64,000 nucleotides of DNA from Gammaproteobacteria bacterium (GCA_016744065.1 JADGFA010000004.1:64559-128558); one strand, 5' to 3'; positions 11,533-63,008 are shown, counted from the first letter of the stretch. Notes: generated by a model from the letters alone, not told the origin. Numbers and translations are program-made.

Positions 11533-13905
11533 ATGAGTAAAGAATGCTGCGATACAGATCAGGGTTCACCTGATAGCAAATCCCATTACACCGTTGGCCT
11601 GTTAGGCAACCCTAATTGCGGTAAATCGACCTTATTCAATACCCTCACCGGTTCTCGCCAGAAAATTGGCAATTGGCCCGGCGTCACCATTGACCGTAAA
11701 GTGGGTCAGTTCGAATACCAGAATATCCCTTTTGATGTTGTTGACCTGCCCGGTGTCTACTCACTGGATAACAGTGCTCGTTCACTTGATGAAAAGGTCA
11801 CCCGAGATTACATTCTTTCATCCGAACCAGATCTAATCATAAATGTACTAAACGCCTCCAATCTGGAGCGCAATCTGTATTTAAGCGGACAACTGCTGGA
11901 AATGCAGGTGCCTATGATCATTGCACTTAATATGATGGATCTGGCGGATTCTCATGATATTAAAATAGATCAACAGGCATTGGCACAAAAATTCGGCTGC
12001 CCTGTCGTTGCTATTACGGCACATAAAAACATTGGCACCGAAGAGTTAATGCAGGTTGTATTACAGGCTTCACAAAAGCGCCAGCCACCAACACAACAAC
12101 TTCCTTACTCAAAAGATATTGAGCAGGCTATTCTCGACCTGCTTGCGTCTCTACCTGAAAACCATCCATATTGTGAACATGTGAACTGTCGCTGGATGGC
12201 TGCACAAATTTTAGATAATGACACGGGTATTGAAGACTTCAAAACCATTGACCGGGCTATTCTCGACCGCGCACAGGAGTTACGTGAGAAATTAGAACAG
12301 CAGCACAATGAAGATATAGATATTCTACTTGCAGATTGTCGTTACGGTTTTGCCCGTAAAGTGACTGAACAAATCATTTCACGACCAGATGAGTACAAAT
12401 ACTCTCTGTCTGACCGTATTGATAATATTGTTTTAAACCGTTTTCTTGGTATTCCTGTTTTTCTCAGTGTCATTTATCTGATGTTTTTATTTACCATCAA
12501 TCTAGGTGGCGCTTTTATCGATTTTTTTGATATTGCTGCCGGCGCTATATTTATTGACGGTTTCGGTGAAATACTCACCGCTCTGGGATTTCCAGACTGG
12601 ATACGCGTCATACTTGCAAACGGACTGGGAGGTGGCTTTCAGGTCGTAGCAACCTTCATTCCTATTATTGGCTTTTTATATCTGTTTTTATCATTTGTTG
12701 AAAGCACAGGTTATATGATGCGTGCTGCTTTTGTCGTAGACCGCTTTATGCGCACCCTGGGGCTTCCTGGCAAGGCTTTTGTTCCATTAATTGTTGGTTT
12801 TGGCTGTAATGTACCTTCAATTATGGCAACTCGTACACTGGAAAATCACCGTGAACGTATTATTACCGTCATGATGGCACCCTTTATGTCCTGTGGTGCA
12901 CGCCTGTCAGTATACGCTCTATTTGCTGCTGCATTTTTTCCTGAAGGTGGCCAGAATATCGTTTTCTTACTCTACATTGTCGGTATTCTTTTTGCTGTTT
13001 TCACTGCCTTTATTATTAAATCAACTTTACTACCTGGCGAAGCCTCACCTTTCCTGATGGAGCTACCAACATACCATGTACCTAAAACCCGTGATGTGCT
13101 AATACGCACCTGGTCACGCCTGAAAGGTTTTCTACTAGATGCAGGCAAAATTATCATTTTAATGGTGCTGGTTATTAACTTCCTTAATTCCTGGGGTACC
13201 GATGGTAGTTTTGGCAACGAAGACCAGAAAGACTCTGTTCTTAGTGCAATAAGTCGAAGCATTACACCTGTATTCTCTCCTATGGGTATAGAAGAAGATA
13301 ACTGGCCAGCAACTGTAGGTATCTTTACCGGTATATTAGCCAAAGAAGTAGTTGTAGGCACACTGGATGCCATTTATTCACAAATGGATCAACCCGCAGC
13401 AGGCACAACTGAAGAAGCCGAATTTTCACTTGGCGACTCACTAAATGAGGCCTTGCAAACTATCCCCGATAATTTACTGGATGTGCTCAATAACCTGACT
13501 GATCCCCTGGGATTCAATGTACTGGACAGCACCTCAGATCAAAATGCAGCTGCAGCTGAGCAGGATGTAGATACCGCAACATTTGGTGCAATGGTAAAAC
13601 GTTTTGATGGTCAAACAGGGGCTTTTGCTTACCTGTTATTTATATTGCTTTATGCTCCCTGCGTTGCCGCAACCGCTGCGATCTACCGCGAAGCAGGGGC
13701 ACGCTGGATGTGGTTTGCACTTGCCTGGAGCACGGGTATGGCATGGTCAGCATCGACTCTGTTTTATCAGTTAGCACGATTTAATCAACACCCCGCCTCA
13801 TCTATCGCCTGGATAAGTGCTATTCTAATTGCAATTACGCTTGCTATTGGTTACATGCGATATACCGGTCGTGCAGACCAGAAGCTGACAGAAGTCTCAA
13901 CATGA
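11533..13905 (+). CDS. feoB: Ferrous iron transporter FeoB (G-protein domain plus Gate-motif permease)
   Basis: 790 aa. G1 motif GNPNCGKSTLFN, G3 motif DLPGVYS, then a polytopic membrane domain with nucleoside-recognition/Gate repeats. Confidence 0.95.
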   Translation: MSKECCDTDQGSPDSKSHYTVGLLGNPNCGKSTLFNTLTGSRQKIGNWPGVTIDRKVGQFEYQNIPFDVVDLPGVYSLDNSARSLDEKVTRDYILSSEPDLIINVLNASNLERNLYLSGQLLEMQVPMIIALNMMDLADSHDIKIDQQALAQKFGCPVVAITAHKNIGTEELMQVVLQASQKRQPPTQQLPYSKDIEQAILDLLASLPENHPYCEHVNCRWMAAQILDNDTGIEDFKTIDRAILDRAQELREKLEQQHNEDIDILLADCRYGFARKVTEQIISRPDEYKYSLSDRIDNIVLNRFLGIPVFLSVIYLMFLFTINLGGAFIDFFDIAAGAIFIDGFGEILTALGFPDWIRVILANGLGGGFQVVATFIPIIGFLYLFLSFVESTGYMMRAAFVVDRFMRTLGLPGKAFVPLIVGFGCNVPSIMATRTLENHRERIITVMMAPFMSCGARLSVYALFAAAFFPEGGQNIVFLLYIVGILFAVFTAFIIKSTLLPGEASPFLMELPTYHVPKTRDVLIRTWSRLKGFLLDAGKIIILMVLVINFLNSWGTDGSFGNEDQKDSVLSAISRSITPVFSPMGIEEDNWPATVGIFTGILAKEVVVGTLDAIYSQMDQPAAGTTEEAEFSLGDSLNEALQTIPDNLLDVLNNLTDPLGFNVLDSTSDQNAAAAEQDVDTATFGAMVKRFDGQTGAFAYLLFILLYAPCVAATAAIYREAGARWMWFALAWSTGMAWSASTLFYQLARFNQHPASSIAWISAILIAITLAIGYMRYTGRADQKLTEVST

Positions 13906-20909: not shown

Positions 20910-22121
20910 TTAACCAGGTCGACCATCAACCCGTGCTGTAACCAGCATGGGTGCATAAAAATAAAAATAACAGGCAAATGCCAGCACCCAGAGGCCACCA
21001 GCAATAGCTGTACTCCACTGCACAAGCTCAGGTAACCAGGCAGGAATAATAACTCGTACAACTGCGGCTAAAAAAATAAAAATATAGGCAACGCTTATTA
21101 AGCGGGGAGGATTAAGCTGACGCCCAGTATGACCCAGTGTAACTCTCGAAATCATAGAAAGTATCATGCCACCAATAGCACCTACAGTAATACTGTGTAA
21201 AGCGGCACTAATATTAGCCATTACGCCCATACTGTATAGTGCTAATAAACCAAAACCCAGCGGTATAAAACTATACGCTATATGTAACGACCATAATAAA
21301 GGCTCTGATTTACAGTACTGCCCACCCCAGCGGGAAGAGCGCCAGGCATTTGCCAGTGCCGCTATAAAGGAAACACTAAATAATAATATTGACGGTACAT
21401 TATCAAACCCCAAAAAAGCAATAATCAACAATAAAATAATGCTTAAAATGCTAATAATTTCCAGGTATTTAACAGGTGGTTTTTTAATACAACGTGTTGT
21501 ATTGGCGGTGAATGCAGGTATAACACGACCACCTAAGATAGTGATGATTAAAGAGAAAAGAATAATCGCGCCATGTAATGCCTGCGTTGCTATGTGATGC
21601 TGATTATAAATCACAGCCCAGTGGCTACTGGCATTCAATAAACTTAAAACAAATAAAATAGGCACAAACATCAGATTACGCCACTGTTTCACTTTTATTA
21701 CCGGATAAGCCATCGCAATAGCAGCAAACAATAAAAACATAACATCACCTGCTGCAATTAACTCAACAGGAACATTGTAAGAAAAACCAAAAGCTAAAAA
21801 AAATCGCCCTGATAACCACATTAAAACCAGTACCGCTAGCGGTTTACCTCTTATACCCATAACACCCGTCCATGACTGAACGGCCGTTAACAAAAAACCA
21901 ACAACAATAGCGGAGCCAAAACCAAACAACATTTCATGCCCATGCCACCAGACAGGCCCACCATAAGGTAGCCAGGTAGAAGCGCTAATCCAGAAATAAA
22001 CCCACCAGGCTATAGCCAGAATAGAAAACAGAGTTCCCCCTAAAAACAATGGCCGAAAAGCCAGACGAAATAAAGGAGGAATAGCTAATGCTATACGGCT
22101 GTCATCTATATTAAGAGGCAT
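20910..22121 (-). CDS. nnrS: NnrS family protein (heme-copper membrane protein of the NO-stress response)
   Basis: 403 aa polytopic membrane protein. N-terminal LFRLAFRPLFLGGTLFSILAIAWW...WWHGHEMLFGF block with conserved His residues typical of NnrS. Confidence 0.8.
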   Translation of the reverse strand: MPLNIDDSRIALAIPPLFRLAFRPLFLGGTLFSILAIAWWVYFWISASTWLPYGGPVWWHGHEMLFGFGSAIVVGFLLTAVQSWTGVMGIRGKPLAVLVLMWLSGRFFLAFGFSYNVPVELIAAGDVMFLLFAAIAMAYPVIKVKQWRNLMFVPILFVLSLLNASSHWAVIYNQHHIATQALHGAIILFSLIITILGGRVIPAFTANTTRCIKKPPVKYLEIISILSIILLLIIAFLGFDNVPSILLFSVSFIAALANAWRSSRWGGQYCKSEPLLWSLHIAYSFIPLGFGLLALYSMGVMANISAALHSITVGAIGGMILSMISRVTLGHTGRQLNPPRLISVAYIFIFLAAVVRVIIPAWLPELVQWSTAIAGGLWVLAFACYFYFYAPMLVTARVDGRPG

Positions 22122-22554
22122 GGGGGTGAGGTATCCAGAGAAAAATATAATTTTATCTGGTAATTTTTTAGCTGGACAGGATAAAAGTCAAAAATAACCT
22201 TTTACTATTAAAACCTTTATTGAAGACTTTCACCACAATAAGGATATCCCCTGCGCTTTTGAAGGTGCTTATTTAAGGCAACAAGCAGTCCATTTTCAGT
22301 TATATTTCCACCTCCATCGCTGTCAATTTCTTCACAACATAATGATGATAAATACTTTTTCACCTCTTTTCACTTTTATTCGACTTTTTGTATGCTTTAT
22401 AAAATAATAATACTCCCCTCTGTTTAGAAATGTTTTTTTGCCTGTATCATGTATGAGAAAACACTCGCTTGCTGCTGATACTATGAACAGAACAGGCGAA
22501 TATAAAAATAACGACGATAACGAGGGATTGTGATATAGACTCATGCTATCTCCA

Positions 22555-23775
22555 TTATTTAATTGATTTTAAGTATTTTTCCAGAGTAGTTAATTGATCA
22601 CCGGACAAGTCGAGCCGCCGATGTGAGCGAATACTTCCATCACGAAGCAGTCCAGAAATTTTTTCTGCTTCTATTTCAAATTCAGATGCATTACTCGAGT
22701 GGCAATAGACACAATTATCTTCATATAGCTTACGCCCCTCCTCTATTGCCTTTCCAGGCGTCTCATTAAGAGGCTGAAAAGACGTTTCAAGATTATCCAG
22801 GCTTTGATAAAAGCTACCTTTATCCCAAAAATCAGGCTCTGAGCAACCTAAGCAGGGATGTCCTGCTTCAACAGGGAAACTGGTGCCCTTATTCCATTTA
22901 TGCACTGCACAGGCATTATGAGTTACCGGGCCTTTACATCCCAACTTATACAGACACCAGCCTTTACGCGCCCCTTCATCATCAAAACTTTCTGCAAACT
23001 TCTCATCCTGATAAAAATGATAGCGGGGGCAACGTTCATGCACCGTGTTAGCATAAAAATTGACCGGCCGCTTCTGATCATCCAGTTCGGGAAATCGGTC
23101 AAAAACAAGGTAATGAGCCAACACACCACTGATGGCAACGGGAAGCGGTGGGCAACCGGGAATATTAATCAGCATTTTTTTTGATATAAGGCCTCTTTCC
23201 ATGAGCTGCCCAACACTTTTTGCTCCCGTTGGATCAGGTTTCGCCGCGGGTAACCCTCCATAAGCGGCGCAGCTTCCTATTGCCATCACCGCTGCGGCAC
23301 CAGCACTGCACTCCTGTAATATATCCAGGTTAGTCCTACCCGCAATAGTTGAATAAACACCACCCTCTGCAACTGGAACTGAACCATCAACAATCAACAG
23401 GTATTGCCCATAGAATTTCTTCATTACATCTAATCGGGCCATTTCTGCTGCTTCACCTGAAGCAGCCTGCAAAGTATGGTGATAATCAAGTGAGATATAA
23501 TCAAACATCAAATCTTCGATGCCTGGTGTGTGTGAACGGGTAAGCGACTCAGTACAGCCCGTACACTCCTGAAATGAAAGCCAGATAACAGAAGGTCGAG
23601 TTGCATGGCGCAATTTTTCAGACAACACAGGAATGACACTGACAGGCAGGGCTAATAAAGAAGCCATTACCGAACAGTATTTCAGAAATGACCGTCGGCT
23701 TACTCCCTTTTGAGACAGGTAAGCTTCAAAAGTAATTGCTTTAGATTTTTTTTCTACCAATATAAACCACAACAA
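22555..23775 (-). CDS. [NiFe]-hydrogenase small-subunit homolog (Tat signal, three Fe-S cluster motifs) with extra C-terminal cytochrome c-like CxxCH domain; no large-subunit gene nearby
   Basis: Tat leader [23 protein letters not shown] aligns to E. coli HyaA ([23 protein letters not shown]). Proximal-cluster motifs [16 protein letters not shown] and PGCPP. NiFe_hyd_SSU_C-like medial and distal cluster ligands CPRYHF...[17 protein letters not shown]...[13 protein letters not shown]. C-terminal extension [13 protein letters not shown]...[17 protein letters not shown] resembles a class I cytochrome c. Confidence 0.8.
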   Translation of the reverse strand: [406 protein letters not shown]

Positions 23776-29508: not shown

Positions 29509-31287
29509 TTAATGCTCTACAGGTGGCGCTACTCTTAACACCTCTTCTACCGTTGTTAAACCTGACGCAACTTTCAAAGCACCACTTAAACGTAATGGCC
29601 GCATACCTTCGCTCATAGCCAGTTTTTTCAGATTTTGCATATTAATATCATCAACAATTAAATCCTTAATTTTATCGCTGAAAGTAAACATTTCATAAAG
29701 CCCCATTCTCCCCATAAAACCAGTATTTCTACATTCCAGACAGCCAACGGGTTTAAAAATCTTTTTGGGCTTTGCTGGTTTCCAGGGCTTCACCAGCGCT
29801 TTCCAGGTTACATCATCGATTTCCGTTTCCTGTTTACAATGCGGGCACAACACTCTCACCAGGCGTTGCGCCATAATACCCAATATGGTGGACTGTATTA
29901 AATAGGCAGGCACACCAATTTCCATCAAACGGGTTACTGCTGAAGGTGCATCGTTAGTATGTAAAGTAGAAACGACCAGATGCCCCGTTAATGCAGCCTG
30001 GATAGCAATATCCGCTGTTTCCCTGTCGCGAATCTCACCAATCATTATAATATCCGGGTCCTGTCTCAATAAAGTACGTACACCGGTTGAAAAATCCAGA
30101 CCAATATTATGCTGCACCTGCATCTGGTTAAAACTGCTTTCTACCAGTTCTATTGGGTCTTCAACTGTACAGACATTCACTTCTGGCTTTGCCAACTGTT
30201 TCAGGCTGGTATAGAGCGTGGTTGTTTTACCCGAACCCGTTGGCCCTGTAACCAGAATAATCCCATTCGGTTTTGAGATCATTGATTGCCAGCGTTCATC
30301 ATCTGACTGACTAAAACCAAGCTCTCTAAAATTCTTAACCAGCACTTCAGGGTCAAAAATACGCATGACCAGTTTTTCACCAAATGCTGTTGGCATGGTA
30401 GATAATCGCAACTCAATTTCTACACCATCCGGTGTACGCGTTTTTAAACGACCATCCTGGGGACGACGTTTTTCAGCAACATCCATGCGGCCTAATATCT
30501 TTATACGACTGGAGACGGCTGCCATAACTGTAGATGGCACCTGATAGACCTGGTGCATCACACCATCGATTCTAAAACGCACATTTCCCTGGTCACGCCT
30601 GGGTTCAAGGTGTATATCGCTAGCACGTTGATCAAAAGCATACTGCAATAACCAGTCAACAATATTAATTACATGCTGATCATTAGCATCCAGTTTACCG
30701 GCCCTTCCTAACTCCATCAGGCCTTCAAGATTGCCAATCTCATTTCCTGCTCCCAGTGCTTCAGATTCAGCTCGATTAACTGATTTTGAAACCGTATAAA
30801 ACTCTAGAAGATAGCGTGAAATTTCATCAGGATTAGATATAACCCGCTTAAACTCCTGATTATTTATACGCGAAAGCTCTTGTTCCCATTCCTTAACAAA
30901 TGGCTCTGCAGTAGCAATAGTAATGAATTTTTCATCAACAGAAATGGGTAAAATATTAAATCGAGCCGCATAAGCATAGGACATAACAGATGTTATTTTT
31001 GCAACTTCAATTTTCAGGGGATCTATACGATGATACGGCATCTTCACCCTGTCAGCCAGCCAGGTTGTCAACACGTCCAGTGAAAGCAAACTATGGCCAT
31101 TACGCTGATCGATCCATTGGCGCTCAGCAATCACACATAACGGGTTTTTTTCCTGATACTCCTTACCCACTGCCAATGTACGCAACATATGTGCGTTTTC
31201 ATCAGACACCATATTGTCATCTTCAAGCCACTTAAGCACCTCATGAATATCTAGCTTTTTTTCACTTTTTTTAATGACTGCATTCAT
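29509..31287 (-). CDS. GspE/PilB-family secretion ATPase (second copy; orphan with respect to T2SS/T4P partners)
   Basis: 592 aa. T2SSE_N-like N-domain (...ARFNILPISVDEKFITIATAEPF...). Walker A GPTGSGKTT, Asp box, His box, tetracysteine motif CPHC...CLEC. Characteristic GspE C-terminus GALKVASGLTTVEEVLRV. Confidence 0.9.
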   Translation of the reverse strand: MNAVIKKSEKKLDIHEVLKWLEDDNMVSDENAHMLRTLAVGKEYQEKNPLCVIAERQWIDQRNGHSLLSLDVLTTWLADRVKMPYHRIDPLKIEVAKITSVMSYAYAARFNILPISVDEKFITIATAEPFVKEWEQELSRINNQEFKRVISNPDEISRYLLEFYTVSKSVNRAESEALGAGNEIGNLEGLMELGRAGKLDANDQHVINIVDWLLQYAFDQRASDIHLEPRRDQGNVRFRIDGVMHQVYQVPSTVMAAVSSRIKILGRMDVAEKRRPQDGRLKTRTPDGVEIELRLSTMPTAFGEKLVMRIFDPEVLVKNFRELGFSQSDDERWQSMISKPNGIILVTGPTGSGKTTTLYTSLKQLAKPEVNVCTVEDPIELVESSFNQMQVQHNIGLDFSTGVRTLLRQDPDIIMIGEIRDRETADIAIQAALTGHLVVSTLHTNDAPSAVTRLMEIGVPAYLIQSTILGIMAQRLVRVLCPHCKQETEIDDVTWKALVKPWKPAKPKKIFKPVGCLECRNTGFMGRMGLYEMFTFSDKIKDLIVDDINMQNLKKLAMSEGMRPLRLSGALKVASGLTTVEEVLRVAPPVEH

Positions 31288-31490: not shown

Positions 31491-32240
31491 TTAATATTTA
31501 AGCTTAACCACTTTATCAGGCTCTACCATTTTCGTATAATAAAACACACTTACTAATTTATATTTATTTTCTTTATCTGGTTGAATATCAATAGATTCAA
31601 CTTTTGCGGAAAATTCCTGCTGATCAACAACAACCTTTAATTCCTGGCCGATATTAAATTTTAATTTCTGTTGATAAGTTAAAAAAGCAACTGCAGATGC
31701 CTGTTTTGCTGACACTAGCTCAATAAAAGTTTCTGTTTTATTTTCTGCCGAAATAACCATCGCTTCTATTACATTTGAATTTACAACATACGCTGAATCT
31801 CTCGCTTTTAACGCAGAACGTTTTAATTTCCAGCTTCGTAGCAAACATTCAGCCTTTACTTCTTTCTGGCTTTCAATTAACACCTTATATTTACCATCGA
31901 TTTTTTGCAGCTCAACCTCAGACAAAACGGTTCGCTCAAATAACTCCTCAGCCTGATCCAGCTCAAGTTTAGCGTCAAAAATTTGAGGATTTAATTTATC
32001 AAACTGTGCCTGGCATTGTTTAATTTTATAATTAAACGGATTACTTTCAAGTTTTGCCAGCGCATCGCCTTTTTTAACTTTTTCTCCGACTTTCACCAGA
32101 ACTTTATCAACGACACCATTAACTGAAAATCCATATTTTTGATGCCCCACCCAACTTAACCTTGCTTCCATTTCAACAGCCTGAGAAATCGTATGAAATC
32201 CAGATAAAAAAATAATAATCAGTAAACTGCATTTTTTCAT
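31491..32240 (-). CDS. Periplasmic adaptor (membrane-fusion protein family, biotin-lipoyl-like plus short coiled coil plus beta-barrel), minimal 249 aa form
   Basis: Signal peptide. GVVDKVLVKVGEKVKKGDALAKLES barrel-sandwich hybrid motif followed by coiled coil and beta-barrel domain. Immediately downstream (77 nt) of the TolC-like gene. Confidence 0.6.
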   Translation of the reverse strand: MKKCSLLIIIFLSGFHTISQAVEMEARLSWVGHQKYGFSVNGVVDKVLVKVGEKVKKGDALAKLESNPFNYKIKQCQAQFDKLNPQIFDAKLELDQAEELFERTVLSEVELQKIDGKYKVLIESQKEVKAECLLRSWKLKRSALKARDSAYVVNSNVIEAMVISAENKTETFIELVSAKQASAVAFLTYQQKLKFNIGQELKVVVDQQEFSAKVESIDIQPDKENKYKLVSVFYYTKMVEPDKVVKLKY

Positions 32241-32316
32241 AATTAATTATCACCTATCATGATACTTTCATTTTATACTTAATCATAATATACAAAAAAC
32301 TAAATATTATGGCTCA

Positions 32317-33594
32317 TCATAACGGATCCACTTCACCAGATAATAACCTCAATTGCATTCTTGCCAACGCCAGTTCAAAATTATTTTTTGCCCGTTTATA
32401 CTGTATCTCTGAAATGGCTACCATTGAATTACCCAGGTTTGTTTCTACCTCCATTTCATATAACGCACGGCTCTTATCAAGCCTTAACTCTCTAAAATCC
32501 TGTGAGGTTAACAATTGTTCCTGACGCTGATTGAGCACATTAACAGTTTGCCACAGCTTCAATATTTGCTTACGCAAATTAATTTTTATATTCAATAAAT
32601 TCGCTCGTTGCTGTAACCAGCCAGCCCTTGCTTTGGAAATATCTCTCTTAATACTACTATTTTCATACAAAGGAACAATCAAATTAAGTTGCGCTCTCCA
32701 TTCATCATTTGAGCCTTTAACTCGTGCATATTCAGATACTTTAATTTCGGCATCAAGACGAGGCCCGAACTTGTTTTCTGCCGCAGACACTCTTTGACTT
32801 GCTGCCTGCATCTGTTTGTTCGCCAGTTTAATCTGCGGGTTATTCATCATTACCTGATCAAGCAACAAAGAATAATCCGTAGGTATTTGTTGTGAAAAAT
32901 CTAACACAGGCATTTTTAAATTTGATGGTAACTCTGCCGGTCTGTTTAGTAGATCAGCTAATATAGCTCGGCTATGGCGTTGATTCATTTCACTTAGCTG
33001 GCGCTGATGGAGTACATCAACATAATTACTTTCTGATTCTAAAAGATCAACATCGGAAATTTGTGATAAAGCATGCCGGTCTTGCACCGTTTCAAAACGA
33101 ATATAAGCCACTGCCATTGCTTCATTATCCCAGGCATATTTTAAATCACTTAATATCACTTCAAAAAACTGCCTGGCAATATCAATTTTTCTTTGGCCTA
33201 TTATAAAAGGCATATAATTCTGTAATGCCAACTGTTCTGTTTGTGCCGCCAGAATGTTTTCTGTAGATGCGCCAAAATTATATAACGGTTTTATCATTCT
33301 CAATGAAATTCGACTGTCATTAGAAGACTGATCAAAAGCAATTGGTGATGGATTAATATATGCCGCTTCAACTTCCAGTTGTGCCCTGAATCCCAAACCG
33401 GCTTCTGCTCGTTCAAGCTCCGACTGTGCTCTGACTATTGATGACTGTGCTTCAATTAGCTGATAATACTGAGCATCATCAGCCATTCCCATTGCCTGTT
33501 CAAGACTAAGGGGATCGGGTAAAGATTCAGCCACTACTACAGGAAGATAAATCAGACAGCAAAGAAAGCGTACACTTTTATTTATAATATTCAC
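32317..33594 (-). CDS. TolC-family outer membrane efflux protein
   Basis: 425 aa. Signal peptide. Two-repeat alpha-helical/beta-barrel architecture with characteristic coiled-coil heptads (EQAMGMADD...LERAEAGLGFRAQLEVEA). Confidence 0.8.
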   Translation of the reverse strand: MNIINKSVRFLCCLIYLPVVVAESLPDPLSLEQAMGMADDAQYYQLIEAQSSIVRAQSELERAEAGLGFRAQLEVEAAYINPSPIAFDQSSNDSRISLRMIKPLYNFGASTENILAAQTEQLALQNYMPFIIGQRKIDIARQFFEVILSDLKYAWDNEAMAVAYIRFETVQDRHALSQISDVDLLESESNYVDVLHQRQLSEMNQRHSRAILADLLNRPAELPSNLKMPVLDFSQQIPTDYSLLLDQVMMNNPQIKLANKQMQAASQRVSAAENKFGPRLDAEIKVSEYARVKGSNDEWRAQLNLIVPLYENSSIKRDISKARAGWLQQRANLLNIKINLRKQILKLWQTVNVLNQRQEQLLTSQDFRELRLDKSRALYEMEVETNLGNSMVAISEIQYKRAKNNFELALARMQLRLLSGEVDPL

Positions 33595-33649
33595 TCTAAT
33601 TATTTTTAATACTCAGGCATTAGTAGATTACTAAACAAACTATTTATTA

Positions 33650-34405
33650 TCAGCCATTTTTACGCCTGTTACGCTTATAACGAGTAAAGCTGGACTTCTT
33701 ATAGCCACCATTTAACATAAATTCACCCAACCAGATAAATTCCTCAACGCTGGAGGTTGGCCCAGTATATTTAACTACTCGCTTGCCACTCAAATCAAAA
33801 AAAGCAAAGACAGGCGTCGCTCTGACCCGTTGCTGTTTAAATGAAAATTCTTTCTGGGTAGTTACATTACCCTGAAAATCAGTCATTTCGACATCGCCAT
33901 CAATATTAATCATAAATATTTTAAAATGCTTTTTATAAAAGGACACCACTTCAGGCTGATTTAAAACAGTCGTTTTCATGCGATGACAAAATGGACATTC
34001 ATCCATTTCAAAAAAGATAAATACACCCGACTTACCTTCTTCTTTTGCTGTTTCAAGTTCTTCCGAAAAATCACCAAAGCCCTGGTCAAAAAACTCTACT
34101 TCATCTGCCTGTATGCTGGTTTCCACTAAAAAAAATGAAAATATGATAAAAAATATGAAGTGAAATTTTGAATAATACTTATTTTTTAAAAGGCCAGATA
34201 AAGATACATTAAAAGCACGAAATGGCCCTGTTTCATTATCTTTTCTTATCAATGCACCTGAATAACCAATACAAAAACACATAATAAACAGTTTTCTAAG
34301 TTCACTAAACCCATGAAAAGACGATGCTCCACATACGCTATTGAACAATTTTTTCAGGCTATTCATACTTATGCCTTCTTTATTTACTATTTTCGAGAAT
34401 ACCAT
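33650..34405 (-). CDS. Thioredoxin-fold protein with CPFC active site (start codon uncertain; hydrophobic anchor/signal before the Trx domain)
   Basis: Trx-like segment GVFIFFEMDECPFCHRMK...VRATPVFAFFDLSGKRVVKYTGP. Hydrophobic stretch FHFIFFIIFSFFLVETSIQA precedes it. Several in-frame ATGs are possible (34405, 34366, 34282). First gene of the thioredoxin-TolC-MFP cluster. Confidence 0.55.
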   Translation of the reverse strand: MVFSKIVNKEGISMNSLKKLFNSVCGASSFHGFSELRKLFIMCFCIGYSGALIRKDNETGPFRAFNVSLSGLLKNKYYSKFHFIFFIIFSFFLVETSIQADEVEFFDQGFGDFSEELETAKEEGKSGVFIFFEMDECPFCHRMKTTVLNQPEVVSFYKKHFKIFMINIDGDVEMTDFQGNVTTQKEFSFKQQRVRATPVFAFFDLSGKRVVKYTGPTSSVEEFIWLGEFMLNGGYKKSSFTRYKRNRRKNG

Positions 34406-34462
34406 TATAAGACAATTGCTTTAAAGTATTATATTTTTTTTCTTCAAAGCCTTAAATTAAAA

Positions 34463-34489
34463 AGGGCCCGCATTTGCGAGCCCTTTTTT
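34463..34489. terminator. Bidirectional intrinsic terminator between the LysM gene and the thioredoxin-TolC cluster
   Basis: AAAAAGGGCCCGC-ATTT-GCGAGCCCTTTTT: 8-bp GC-rich stem (one mismatch) flanked by an A-tract and a T-tract. Confidence 0.65.
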
Positions 34490-34529: not shown

Positions 34530-35192
34530 TTATTGAGCAAGATATGCATCATCAGAAGACTCTGTTGAACCCACTGACCAGGCTCCACGTGTTTTAGCAT
34601 GATCAACGGCTGCATTAATATCAGCACTAGAAGCACTGCGATCAATATCAAGCACCTGACCTGGATGGATTAAATCGGCATCTTTAATCTGACTACGATT
34701 CGCCTTATAAATTAATGGCCACTGATAAGGGTTAGCATAAATACGATCCTTAGCAGAGATATTCCATAAATTATCACCACCAACAACTTCATATGAATCA
34801 TCACCACCTGTTGATGCTGCATCATTAGCTATGGGCGCGGTGTCTTCTGCAGCACCACTAATTGCTCCGCTCTCTTTCAATCGAGCTTCCTGTTCTTTAG
34901 CCTGCTTCATAGCAAGTTCAGCCTGACGCTGCGCTTTATTAGCAAGCTCCACAGCTTTATCATAATCACCATCAGCTAATGCTTCTTCAGCACTTTTGAT
35001 GATTTTTGCTGTATCACGCCATTCGGCGTTCATTTTCTTTGCCTGTGCATTAGTTGATTTTGCATCAGCAATTGCTTGCTCAGCCGTCGCCTGAGAAGCG
35101 CCTTCATCTTCTGTAGTTGATGCGCAACCTGCAAGCAGACCCAACACTAGCATCATCATAAAGAACGACTTGAAAAGGTGGTTAAATTTCAT
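34530..35192 (-). CDS. LysM-domain lipoprotein with Ala/Gln/Glu-rich helical region
   Basis: Lipobox LLAGCAS. Central coiled-coil-like region. C-terminal LysM (GDNLWNISAKDRIYANPYQWPLIYKANRSQIKDADLIHPGQVLDI). Confidence 0.7.
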   Translation of the reverse strand: MKFNHLFKSFFMMMLVLGLLAGCASTTEDEGASQATAEQAIADAKSTNAQAKKMNAEWRDTAKIIKSAEEALADGDYDKAVELANKAQRQAELAMKQAKEQEARLKESGAISGAAEDTAPIANDAASTGGDDSYEVVGGDNLWNISAKDRIYANPYQWPLIYKANRSQIKDADLIHPGQVLDIDRSASSADINAAVDHAKTRGAWSVGSTESSDDAYLAQ

Positions 35193-60092: not shown

Positions 60093-60545
60093 ATGAAGAA
60101 AATCCAACAGGGTTTTACCTTAATTGAATTAATGATCGTTATTGCGATTATCGGTATTCTGGCGGCAATTGCGATTCCCTCATACAATAACTATATTAAA
60201 ACAGCTAACATGACCCAGGTAACTGGTAATGCGGCTGAAGCAATACGTATTATCAAAAATGAAATATCTAAAAATAAAGCACAAAGCGCTTTAAATATTG
60301 CAAGTACCGACAGAGATACGTTAAGCGGTGGTATAGAAGCAACAGCTGCATCAGGAGCTGAATGGTTCGCACACCTGAATACCACTACTGGCTCTAAAGC
60401 GCCTACTGGTGTCGCTGCATATGCTGCTGCTGCCGATGATACTACTGGTGTTGTAGGTGTTGCTCTAGCTAGTGATGTATTCACAATTGCTACTCCTGCC
60501 TATGAAGACCTGCCTTCTGGTGTAAGCACTGCATTTGACAAGTAA
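60093..60545 (+). CDS. pilA: Type IVa major pilin (Cys-free)
   Basis: Prepilin leader [31 protein letters not shown] with cleavage/methylation site G|FTLIE. Ala/Thr/Gly-rich C-terminal domain lacking any cysteine. Confidence 0.85.
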
Positions 60546-60705: not shown

Positions 60706-61128
60706 ATGAAAAGCACGAGCAAGCAAAACGGATTCACATTAGTTGAACTGATGATAGTTGTTGGCATCTTAGGCATCCTTTCAGCAATTGCTATCCCTAC
60801 CTACAACAACTATATCGTTACATCATGCCTAACTACTGCACGGATCAATTTAGAAACCCTGTCCACCTTTGAAGAAAACTACAACCTTGAAACGAATAGC
60901 TACCTGGCGGGCACTCACAATGCAGGAGATGACCTGGGCAGCAGCGCTTTAATGGGGAAACTACACTGGGATCCAGATGATCAGGGGCAGTATAGCTATA
61001 CCGTTGCTGTTAACTCTGCATATGACGGCAAGACATATGACTATGTTATTACTGTTGCAAGCGCCGAAGCATGCGCAGCCGCAGACGCAAAATATGGCCC
61101 TACTCAAAAAGGTTTTCATCAGCAATAG
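60706..61128 (+). CDS. Second type IV pilin
   Basis: Leader [36 protein letters not shown]. Two Cys residues (C42, C124). May have its own sigma-54-like element TGGCCTTAATATAGCT at 60669-60684. Confidence 0.8.
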
Positions 61129-61301: not shown

Positions 61302-63008
61302 ATGCCACCAAATGTAAAACTGAGCGGGTTATCCCGCCGTCTGGTTCTTGATGGTCTGATAGACGATGAAACCGCATTAAGTGCTCAGACTAATTCGAAA
61401 AAAGAAAACCTTAATTTAAGCCAGTATCTTGTTAAGCAAAAACTGATCTCAGCCAATAAACTGGCGACAGTTGCTGCCAATGAATTTGGCATGCCTCTTT
61501 TCGATCTGGATTCACTGGATAAAGATTCAATTCCTGCTGGCCTGGTTGATGAAGCCCTTATAAAAAAACACCATACTATCCCTATTTATAAACGGGGAAA
61601 CAGACTCTATGTTGCTCTTGCAGAGCCCACTAATTTAATCGGTATAGATGAAATAAAGTTTCAGACCGGTATAAACACAGAAGCTGTTCTGGTAGAAGCA
61701 GACAAACTTAACAAATTAATAGAACGCGCCCTTGAGTCCAAAGACAGTGGTATGGATGATTTAATGGACGATGATCTGGATGATCTTGACTTTGAAGACG
61801 CAGAGGCAGAACCAGGTGATGATGCCTCATCATCCGATGCTGATGATACACCTGTTGTACGCTTCGTTAATAAAGTTCTCCTGGATGCCATTAAAAAAGG
61901 CGCTTCTGATATCCATTTTGAGCCTTATGAAAAACGTTACCGTGTGCGCCTGCGCATAGACGGAGTGCTTCGTGAAGTCGCCTCACCCCCCAACGCGATG
62001 GGTGGCCGACTATCAGCACGAATTAAAGTCATGTCACGTATGGATACTGCTGAACGACGCATACCACAGGATGGTCGAATTAAAATGCGTATATCAAAAA
62101 ACAAAGCCATTGATTTTCGCGTAAATACCTGCCCCACTTTGTTTGGTGAAAAAATTGTATTGCGTATTCTTGATGCCTCTGCAGCGAAACTGGGTATTGA
62201 TGCATTGGGGTACGAGCCTGAACAGAAACAAATTTATCTTGATGCACTGGATAACCCTTATGGCATGATCCTGGTGACCGGTCCAACGGGTAGTGGTAAG
62301 ACCGTATCACTTTACACCGGTTTAAATATTCTTAATACAGAAGATCGTAATATATCGACGGCTGAAGATCCGGTTGAAATTAATCTTGAAGGCATCAATC
62401 AGGTTAATATGAACCCAAAAGTTGGTCTGGACTTCAACTCTACCCTACGCGCATTTTTACGCCAGGATCCAGATATTATAATGGTAGGTGAAATACGTGA
62501 TCTGGAAACAGCCAGCATTGCAATCAAAGCAGCCCAAACGGGACATATGGTTATGTCCACTTTACATACCAATGATGCACCACAAACACTATCACGCCTT
62601 ATTAACATGGGCGTTCCTCCTTTCAATATTGCATCTGCAGTCAACCTGATTATTGCTCAACGACTTGCTCGACGTTTATGTGAAAACTGTAAAGTAGAAG
62701 AGAAAATACCCAATGAAACCTTGCTAGAAGAAGGTTTCCTGGAACAGGATATTAACGATGGTATCAAGCTTTACAAAGCCGTTGGCTGTGATCAGTGTGA
62801 CAAAGGCTATAAGGGCCGCGTTGGCATCTATCAGGTAATGAAAATTTCGGAAGAAATGGGGCGAATTATTATGCGCGAAGGCAACGCACTGGAATTAGCA
62901 GATCAGGCACAAAAAGAAGACATTGCAGATCTACGACAATCCGCACTAAAAAAAGCAAAAAGCGGTGTAACCAGCCTGGAAGAGATTAACCGGGTAACTA
63001 AGGATTAA
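61302..63008 (+). CDS. pilB: Type IV pilus assembly ATPase PilB
   Basis: N-terminus MPPNVKLSGLSRRLVLDGLIDDETA matches PilB (P. aeruginosa MNDSIQLSGLSRQLVQANLLDEKTA). Acidic linker. Walker A GPTGSGKTVS and tetracysteine motif. Confidence 0.95.
   Translation: MPPNVKLSGLSRRLVLDGLIDDETALSAQTNSKKENLNLSQYLVKQKLISANKLATVAANEFGMPLFDLDSLDKDSIPAGLVDEALIKKHHTIPIYKRGNRLYVALAEPTNLIGIDEIKFQTGINTEAVLVEADKLNKLIERALESKDSGMDDLMDDDLDDLDFEDAEAEPGDDASSSDADDTPVVRFVNKVLLDAIKKGASDIHFEPYEKRYRVRLRIDGVLREVASPPNAMGGRLSARIKVMSRMDTAERRIPQDGRIKMRISKNKAIDFRVNTCPTLFGEKIVLRILDASAAKLGIDALGYEPEQKQIYLDALDNPYGMILVTGPTGSGKTVSLYTGLNILNTEDRNISTAEDPVEINLEGINQVNMNPKVGLDFNSTLRAFLRQDPDIIMVGEIRDLETASIAIKAAQTGHMVMSTLHTNDAPQTLSRLINMGVPPFNIASAVNLIIAQRLARRLCENCKVEEKIPNETLLEEGFLEQDINDGIKLYKAVGCDQCDKGYKGRVGIYQVMKISEEMGRIIMREGNALELADQAQKEDIADLRQSALKKAKSGVTSLEEINRVTKD

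Follow-up and report, generated by a model that had tools for sequence, protein, structure and literature searches.

The sequence analyzed here, called the window, is a stretch of 64,000 nucleotides from a gammaproteobacterium (GCA_016744065.1, JADGFA010000004.1:64559-128558), in which positions are counted from the first letter. Between positions 34405 and 31491, the minus strand carries three co-directional open reading frames (ORFs), all located where a preliminary description, made from the sequence alone, had placed them. In the order of reading, they encode a protein with a thioredoxin fold (Trx), an outer-membrane factor (OMF) of the TolC family and a short periplasmic adaptor; as that description had remarked, the cluster includes no gene for an inner-membrane transporter. 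Coordinates are given in Table 1, where loci from other genomes carry L numbers; the closest relative, L001, comes from a Galathealinum symbiont.

The three genes are split from the upstream gene, which encodes a lipoprotein with DUF4398 and LysM domains, by the bidirectional terminator previously proposed to delimit the cluster. None of 200 shuffled sequences was equally stable, an A-run and a T-run lie on the flanks, and the terminator sequence, GGGCTCGCAAATGCGGGCC, shows no difference between the window and L001. Located 33-37 nt 5' of the start codon, ATTGTCTTATAATG is also the same in the two loci, and the TATAAT motif listed in Table 1 may represent the −10 box of the operon promoter. 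Given the terminator and the conserved ATTGTCTTATAATG, the three genes therefore appear to form a transcription unit separate from the lipoprotein gene.

The three proteins of the unit

The OMF matches both tandem repeats of the OEP family (PF02321; E 4.4e-17, 62.9 bits against a cut-off of 22), carries a signal peptide and lacks a lipobox. The AlphaFold2 (AF2) model, a monomer prediction with a predicted local distance difference test score (pLDDT) of 87.8, displays the four strands (residues 70-79, 92-106, 279-289 and 299-306) and four long helices (67-68 residues) of the TolC protomer. In Foldseek comparisons, it matched TolC, ST50, TOprJ1, CusC and OprM over the full length, with template modelling (TM) scores of 0.72-0.78. 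The initial assignment as a TolC-like protein is thus well founded. The sequence itself is highly divergent: the best sequence match in the PDB is MtrE (E 0.0055), and the score on TIGR01844 is 49.6 bits for a cut-off of 225. Invariant residues map to the two periplasmic turns (L176, S180, Y379, E380, E382, T385 and G388), and the mature protein is free of cysteines in 28 of 28 homologues.

The adaptor consists of a signal peptide (residues 1-21), a lipoyl domain in two halves, an alpha-hairpin between the halves (helices 67-102 and 108-140, 33-36 residues each) and a beta-barrel (173-248) that extends to the C-terminus. Classification with hidden Markov models (HMMs), as suggested in the preliminary description, gave matches that all lie below the gathering scores (Biotin_lipoyl_2, 2.2e-5; HlyD_D23, 8.6e-4; HlyD_3, 9.2e-4). 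On the RND_mfp model, TIGR01730, the protein scores 75.4 bits (cut-off 94.9) and covers positions 11-223 of 322. Foldseek searches with the AF2 model (pLDDT 91.8, from an alignment of 24 sequences) returned MacA, AcrA, MexA and the MexC-like adaptor of 9j3d (TMexCD1-TOprJ1), with TMq values of 0.60-0.78 for the ten best matches and E values of about 1e-13 for MacA, AcrA and MexA. Only some 245 residues could be aligned to targets of about 340 residues; the membrane-proximal domain is hence missing from the adaptor. Nothing follows the beta-barrel in the model, and the protein has neither a lipid nor a transmembrane anchor. Hydrophobicity at the N-terminus is confined to a short run, of about 12-16 residues according to where its limits are set, and the SQA that comes next agrees with a cleavable signal peptide. 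No lipobox is present, and a lipobox-like motif occurs in only 4 of 147 family members. This anatomy agrees with the earlier view of a short adaptor whose signal peptide is its sole link to the membrane.

Proteins of this type form a sizeable family. A word-based search identified 44 homologues, down to 41% identity, nearly all of 237-266 aa (one is a 144-aa fragment). When 1.84 billion representatives of clusters at 50% identity were searched with a profile, 5011 matches had E<=1e-3, 683 had E<=1e-10 and 78 had E<=1e-30. The 147 representatives analyzed, drawn from the best 150 matches, measure between 191 and 306 aa (median 253 aa). Comparison with two relatives yielded ratios of nonsynonymous to synonymous substitutions (dN/dS) of 0.13-0.17 for the adaptor gene, within an overall range of 0.03-0.17 for the three genes. 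No curated model specific to the short adaptor exists in Pfam or NCBIfam, and the proteins figure in public records as "hypothetical protein" or under the generic name "RND adaptor".

A still shorter form is found in the Thiomicrospiraceae-type loci and in two others. Here the adaptor measures just 168-184 aa and comprises the signal peptide, the lipoyl domain and the hairpin, with DRTVT[AS][KR]R at its tip and no beta-barrel; at this length, none of the known modes of pump contact is open to the protein. We considered that the adaptor might be split, with the barrel encoded by a separate gene 3' of the ~170-aa forms, and rejected this idea as no adaptor-domain match was found among the downstream genes. 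These encode a 131-aa protein without Pfam match in L025 and L028 (91% identical between the two loci) and, elsewhere, a DEAD-box helicase, a weak match to the PilZ domain and the like.

The tip of the hairpin is the part of the adaptor presumed to dock on the OMF. The RTVLS motif, followed by Glu, lies between the two helices in the AF2 model and is invariant in 24 of 24 aligned homologues; 77 of the 147 family representatives have it, and most others have close variants. In alignments, the motif coincides with the tip Arg region of MacA, MexJ and TriB, through which the adaptors of solved pumps dock on the OMF (PMC4446572). Relative to the RLS motif (R-x3-L-x6-S), Arg103 is invariant and the Leu/Ser spacing differs, as it does in MexJ and TriB. 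In the Thiomicrospiraceae-type clade, the second OMF tip changes from YEMEV to YENE[ST] alongside the change in the adaptor tip. The joint change is consistent with OMF-adaptor contact, though it represents a single lineage event.

Two cysteines of the adaptor, Cys76 and Cys131, flank the base of the hairpin; close relatives have either both or neither, a pattern suggestive of a disulfide staple limited to this clade. A redox-stapled hairpin was rejected as a general explanation for the unit: the cysteines are missing from most of the family (127 of the 147 representatives contain no cysteine at all), while Trx is always present.

Trx matches the Thioredoxin_2 (PF13098; E 5.6e-18, 65.7 bits) and Thioredoxin_7 (PF13899; 35.7 bits) families, both with a cut-off of 27 bits. 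It has exactly two cysteines, and its CPFC motif, noted from the outset, is kept in 30 of 30 full-length orthologues from the loci; among database homologues, 116 of 120 contain [DE]CPFC. The same 30 orthologues share the cis-Pro motif, RATPV, and a basic C-terminal tail, F-[TS]-[RK]-[YF]-K-[RK], is conserved as well. With dN/dS values of 0.03-0.07, Trx is the most conserved of the three proteins. Its nearest solved sequence relatives are a Helicobacter "DsbC" (4fyb, E 2.3e-7), which we take to be HP0377, a Thermus thioredoxin and Chlamydia DsbH (2ju5, E 2.6e-4). On the DsbH equivalog model, NF043050, it reaches 32 bits for a cut-off of 190, and must be viewed as DsbH-like rather than as a member. 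Trx would thus appear to resemble most closely the reductase-type proteins HP0377 and DsbH.

The longest ORF for Trx opens at ATG 34405, and the start is, as initially pointed out, ambiguous in the raw ORF. The evidence favors ATG 34366. The upstream codon is disfavored because it overlaps the conserved TATAAT. A Shine-Dalgarno sequence, AAGAAGG, lies seven bases 5' of ATG 34366, and this codon and the start codon of the L001 orthologue are at an equal distance from TATAAT. A 238-aa product with this start has an entry in the public protein collection, and the gene calls of two assemblies contain it too.

Compared with L001 in a global DNA alignment, the Trx gene of the window carries an in-frame insertion inside the n-region of the signal peptide, directly after the start codon and before the hydrophobic core. 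None of the orthologues, which measure 173-197 aa, has the insertion; it is confined to the window strain, where it is seen in two assemblies. A mobile-element origin was rejected, as no second copy was found in the window or in the fetched loci. The orthologues begin with a Sec signal peptide of classical n-h-c organization that has A-x-A at its end. In the window protein, the hydrophobic core spans residues 68-83, with predicted cleavage after IQA (residue 87); the insertion converts the N-terminal signal peptide into an internal hydrophobic segment. The preliminary description had left open whether this segment is a signal or a membrane anchor. The orthologues speak for a signal, and export of the window protein by means of a signal lying behind a 60-aa insertion is plausible.

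Conservation of the unit and its surroundings

A genome scan seeded with the adaptor alignment identified 30 loci, and look-ups of exact proteins added ten more. In all loci with enough flanking sequence (about 33 distinct ones), the genes for Trx, OMF and adaptor are found in this order on one strand, with Trx always the first gene of the unit. The gene triplet whose conservation the preliminary description had proposed to examine is thus widespread. Many loci display 4-nt stop/start overlaps between the genes of the module, and the identity of the adaptors drops to 25% across the set. Of the 17 Trx homologues whose contigs measure at least 30 kb, 16 have an OMF partner, seen as a paired match (an OMF match on a contig of the same length) or as the adjoining gene in a map. 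The named organisms among the 30 scanned loci are all of the sulfur-oxidizer type; they belong to Thiotrichaceae, Ectothiorhodospiraceae, Sedimenticola, Hydrogenovibrio, Thiomicrorhabdus and Thiomicrospira, and include a Taylorina symbiont. Full-text literature searches for a Trx/TolC/HlyD operon and for partnerless adaptors found no account of the module.

No transporter gene lies inside the unit or directly beside it in the about 33 orthologous loci; the preliminary description had held that such a neighbor would mark the copy in the window as a remnant. A crude hydropathy scan of the ORFs of at least 110 aa detected no polytopic efflux-type transporter in the 64-kb window. Its polytopic proteins comprise FeoB, an NnrS-like protein and a further pair with 9-10 predicted membrane segments; one member of this pair matches an AI-2E-type transporter gene in the gene calls. 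Across the loci, polytopic proteins encoded within 4 kb of the module include BrkB, a sodium:solute symporter, a Na/H exchanger, CDF and AI-2E proteins, and MacB or resistance-nodulation-division (RND) pumps. None of them is conserved beside the module.

The module is embedded in a conserved backbone, purM-DUF2066-hda ... arsC-wrbA-DUF2069-lipoprotein-Trx-OMF-adaptor-acylphosphatase-SLT-proS. The gene for acylphosphatase, a cytoplasmic protein of ~90 aa, is usually found 3' of the adaptor gene and often overlaps it by 1-4 nt; it is missing from the window and from its closest relatives, L001 and L006. The lipoprotein gene is kept 5' of the module in many loci, yet lies beyond the terminator; its product has the DUF4398 domain at the N-terminus, where it resembles the SoxAX-binding protein SAXB (86.4 bits, cut-off 95), and the LysM domain at the C-terminus. 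In five loci, not including the window, a gene for a second exported thiol-disulfide oxidoreductase (AhpC-TSA/Redoxin, TlpA-like) directly precedes the Trx gene.

In the window, the gene directly 3' of the adaptor gene encodes the type IV pilus ATPase TfpB, whose N-terminal MshEN domain, of the type that binds cyclic di-GMP, is kept. In Acinetobacter baylyi, TfpB is an accessory (second) extension motor of the type IV pilus, encoded away from pilC (PMC8213720). The window also contains the gene for the canonical PilB and, beside it, two pilin genes; the presence of two extension ATPases in one genome recalls the two-motor arrangement of A. baylyi. The tfpB gene is not beside the module in L017, L022-L035 and L039, and we treat TfpB as a neighbor rather than a component. 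Elsewhere in the window, the gene for a [NiFe] hydrogenase small subunit (TIGR00391, 390.7 bits) adjoins that of the NnrS-like 12-helix membrane protein, and a feoB gene for a ferrous-iron transporter is present. The hydrogenase, FeoB and the SAXB-like gene fit a hydrogen- and sulfur-oxidizing chemolithotroph related to a siboglinid tubeworm symbiont. The TfpB gene, the insertion in Trx and the wide conservation of the module had all escaped the preliminary description.

Table 1. Coordinates of the features described in the text, in the window and in other loci
Feature	Locus	Position	Strand	Basis or remark
Bidirectional intrinsic terminator	window	34463..34489	.	−21.5 kcal/mol fold, z = −5.14
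Candidate −10 box (TATAAT) of operon promoter	window	34404..34409	-	kept in L001
Shine-Dalgarno sequence of Trx gene	window	34374-34380	-	
Trx-fold protein, 238 aa from ATG 34366	window	33650..34366	-	PF13098, PF13899
In-frame insertion in Trx gene, ~183 nt (~60 codons)	window	34181..34363	-	strain-specific
CPFC codons of Trx	window	33986-33997	-	
TolC-family OMF, 425 aa, GTG start	window	32317..33594	-	PF02321, AF2, Foldseek
Truncated soluble periplasmic adaptor, 249 aa	window	31491..32240	-	AF2, Foldseek, TIGR01730
Codons of adaptor hairpin tip, R103-T-V-L-S107	window	31920..31934	-	presumed OMF docking site
TfpB type IV pilus ATPase	window	29509-31287	-	NF053534, 921.6 bits, cut-off 850
DUF4398/LysM lipoprotein	window	34530-35192	-	
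[NiFe] hydrogenase small subunit and NnrS-like protein	window	20910-23775	-	
FeoB	window	11533-13905	+	
Pilin gene beside PilB	window	60093-60545	+	
Pilin gene beside PilB	window	60706-61128	+	
Canonical PilB	window	61302-63008	+	866 bits on TIGR02538, 452 bits on TfpB model
Nearby pump, MacB-type	L020	4699-7912		
Nearby pump, MacB-type	L029	11539-14695		
Nearby pump, MacB-type	L034	11148-14445		
Nearby pump, RND	L028	9882-14260		
Nearby pump, RND	L039	12467-16762		
Acylphosphatase	L002	10757-11026		
Acylphosphatase	L036	10554-10826		
Acylphosphatase	L037	10576-10851		
Acylphosphatase	L038	8780-9064		
Acylphosphatase	L039	8759-9031		
Acylphosphatase	L040			
Acylphosphatase	L041			
TlpA-like protein upstream of Trx	L017	5476-6054		
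TlpA-like protein upstream of Trx	L028	4171-4668		
TlpA-like protein upstream of Trx	L030	5229-5810		
TlpA-like protein upstream of Trx	L035	5376-5906		
TlpA-like protein upstream of Trx	L039	5472-5942		

Possible functions of the module

In the usual view, a TolC-type duct is the third component of a machine powered from the inner membrane, and the adaptor bridges the gap to the engine. The adaptor described here keeps the very parts that make up the hexameric tube beneath TolC in MacAB-TolC and AcrAB-TolC and lacks all those known to hold a pump or the inner membrane. The simplest model is therefore a duct anchored in the outer membrane and fitted with a soluble collar. We tentatively favor this reading, in which the three-gene operon builds an exit or entry duct without a dedicated inner-membrane pump, while placing it somewhat short of probable. 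The soluble adaptor would dock tip-to-tip on the OMF trimer as a collar and open or gate the periplasmic entrance, leaving a tube open to the periplasm. Trx would act on cargo bearing thiols, disulfides or sulfane sulfur at or before entry, and may dock by means of its conserved basic tail. Passage would be driven by the concentration gradient rather than by ATP or the proton-motive force. The conduit from the periplasm to the outside, coupled to thiol chemistry, that the preliminary description had imagined thus fits the anatomy of the proteins and is preferred to a pump supplied in trans; the transport itself and the cargo are the conjectural part of it.

Several points weigh against such a duct. 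A passive conduit calls for a rationale for why a porin would not suffice. Within the module, Trx has no obvious substrate, since the OMF and most adaptors are free of cysteines; its substrate must therefore be something else. The 250-aa adaptor keeps the beta-barrel, which touches the transporter in known pumps, and for this form a partner in trans is therefore possible. Finally, complete pumps with full-length adaptors of their own lie 2.7-3.7 kb away from the module in 5 of the ~33 loci, so that the OMF could be shared with them. Three of these loci, all from Thiomicrorhabdus, have a MacB-type ATP-binding cassette (ABC) pump with a 419-436-aa adaptor on the opposite strand. The other two have an RND pump with its own adaptor, on the opposite strand in L028 and on the same strand in L039, there past the oppositely oriented SLT and proS genes.

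The last two points also speak for a pump acting in trans. In that case, pumps encoded at other sites would use the OMF as a common exit, the adaptor would be an accessory or second adaptor (as in TriA/TriB) or a gate-keeper, and Trx would condition the substrates. Outer-membrane factors are often encoded apart from their pumps, TolC being a case in point, and the closest sequence relatives of the adaptor in the PDB are a fused two-adaptor TriAB protein (6vej) and MexJ. Nevertheless, adaptors are nearly always encoded with their transporter, and here this is true of none of the ~33 units. Moreover, the nearby pumps belong to two unrelated classes and occur in a minority of loci, the adaptor has neither membrane-proximal domain nor anchor, and the 170-aa forms, being also devoid of the beta-barrel, retain no known pump-contact surface. 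We prefer the conduit because the adaptor lacks every known element of pump contact, and consider a pump in trans rather doubtful. More improbable still is that Trx acts as a reductase of general function in the periplasm, like DsbH or CcmG, and only happens to precede an OMF/adaptor pair unrelated to it. To be sure, the conservation of the whole neighborhood from purM to proS means that the linkage may partly be inherited synteny; the gene for the unrelated, cytoplasmic acylphosphatase is likewise translationally coupled to the adaptor gene, and neither the OMF nor the majority of adaptors offer Trx a cysteine to act upon. However, the order and strand of the module survive changes in its surroundings, as in the Hydrogenovibrio and Thiomicrorhabdus loci, the Trx and OMF genes of many loci share 4 nt, a terminator and a putative promoter bracket the unit upstream, and no Trx orthologue without an OMF was found on long contigs. 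Pseudomonas aeruginosa PA0953-PA0954, a thioredoxin and an acylphosphatase gene next to proS, may represent a Trx orthologue devoid of the OMF and the adaptor.

Two further explanations seem to us very improbable. One would have the T2SSE/MshEN ATPase encoded downstream energize the OMF and the adaptor as a novel secretion machine. In many relatives, as in the window, the gene adjoins the unit and runs in its direction, but its product scores above the cut-off of the TfpB equivalog, that is, of a pilus motor (PMC8213720), in a window that also holds pilB and pilin genes. Furthermore, the ATPase is cytoplasmic, no platform protein is present at the locus, and the gene does not adjoin the module in the loci listed above. 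The other explanation, already raised in the preliminary description, sees in the adaptor a pseudogene fragment of a longer membrane-fusion protein and in the cluster the residue of a lost tripartite pump; we regard it as refuted and give it the least credence of all. The HMM scores below curated cut-offs might hint at decay, but a family centered on ~250 aa, a confident and complete three-domain fold, dN/dS values typical of purifying selection, an invariant tip motif and the recurrence of the same architecture in about 33 loci all argue to the contrary.

A more specific version of the pump-independent duct can be formulated, which we regard as unlikely in its entirety. The OMF trimer and a soluble hexameric collar of mini-adaptors would make up a self-contained two-protein duct, working with neither an inner-membrane partner nor a direct supply of energy, and with the CPFC Trx dedicated to loading or unloading its cargo; candidates for what would move between the periplasm and the medium are sulfane sulfur or polysulfide, or else a thiol metabolite or peptide. 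A view summarized in PMC10045233 has thiols of outer-membrane proteins activate zero-valent sulfur. If true, this version would suggest which molecules might carry out a process long postulated in sulfur-oxidizing Gammaproteobacteria, the thiol-dependent transfer of zero-valent sulfur through the outer membrane. More generally, every part of the adaptor that would reach the inner membrane is gone, and yet the protein stays paired with its own duct and redox protein under strong purifying selection. Either TolC-like ducts can open and work from the periplasm alone, or a novel form of pump coupling exists. The module occurs in the cultivable sulfur oxidizers Hydrogenovibrio halophilus DSM 15072, Thiomicrorhabdus sp. 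Milos-T2 and Thiomicrospira sp. WB1, and the question is therefore directly testable.

Comparison with known adaptors and ducts

The OMF shares with TolC, OprM and CusC the full-length fold, the two OEP repeats and the long tunnel helices. It differs from them in its very divergent sequence and in being always encoded with a short adaptor and Trx. The adaptor, for its part, resembles MacA, AcrA and MexA (3fpp, 5nik, 2f1m, 1vf7) in its hairpin, lipoyl and beta-barrel domains (TMq 0.67-0.78) and in the Arg-containing hairpin tip that, in those proteins, docks on TolC or OprM. What sets it apart is the lack of a membrane-proximal domain, of a lipid or transmembrane anchor and of a cognate transporter gene; it measures ~250 aa (~170 aa in one clade) as opposed to 340-400 aa, and its tip reads RTVLS in place of R-x3-L-x6-S.

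The closest solved relatives in sequence are TriA/TriB (6vej; E 8.4e-17) and MexJ (E 1.3e-10) of Pseudomonas aeruginosa. The tips are alike, ARSVTAQARL and DRNLVSHSQF in TriA/TriB and MexJ comparing with ERTVLSEVEL and DRTVTAKRTL in the short adaptors. In contrast to the latter, TriA/TriB and MexJ are full-length, anchored and encoded with the RND transporters TriC and MexK. Adaptors of the EmrA and HlyD types also lack a membrane-proximal domain (PMC4158417). These proteins, however, have much longer hairpins and an N-terminal transmembrane helix that ties them to a major facilitator superfamily or ABC transporter, whereas the adaptor of the module has a cleavable signal peptide only.

As for Trx, it has in common with HP0377 and Chlamydia DsbH the Thioredoxin_2/7 fold, the CxxC and cis-Pro motifs and its export. 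The similarity is low, and Trx stands apart by its CPFC motif, its conserved basic C-terminal tail and its status as an obligate operon partner of an OMF and an adaptor. The association of such a duct with a soluble periplasmic protein, or with thiol-disulfide chemistry, has parallels. In CusCFBA, CusF, a soluble periplasmic chaperone, feeds the OMF/adaptor duct; MacAB-TolC exports the disulfide-bonded heat-stable enterotoxin, a periplasmic cargo that depends on thiol-disulfide chemistry and leaves through TolC. Both systems differ from the module in having an energized inner-membrane transporter, CusA or MacB, where the module encodes none. The module is a novel variant of the OMF/adaptor theme rather than a novel kind of machine.

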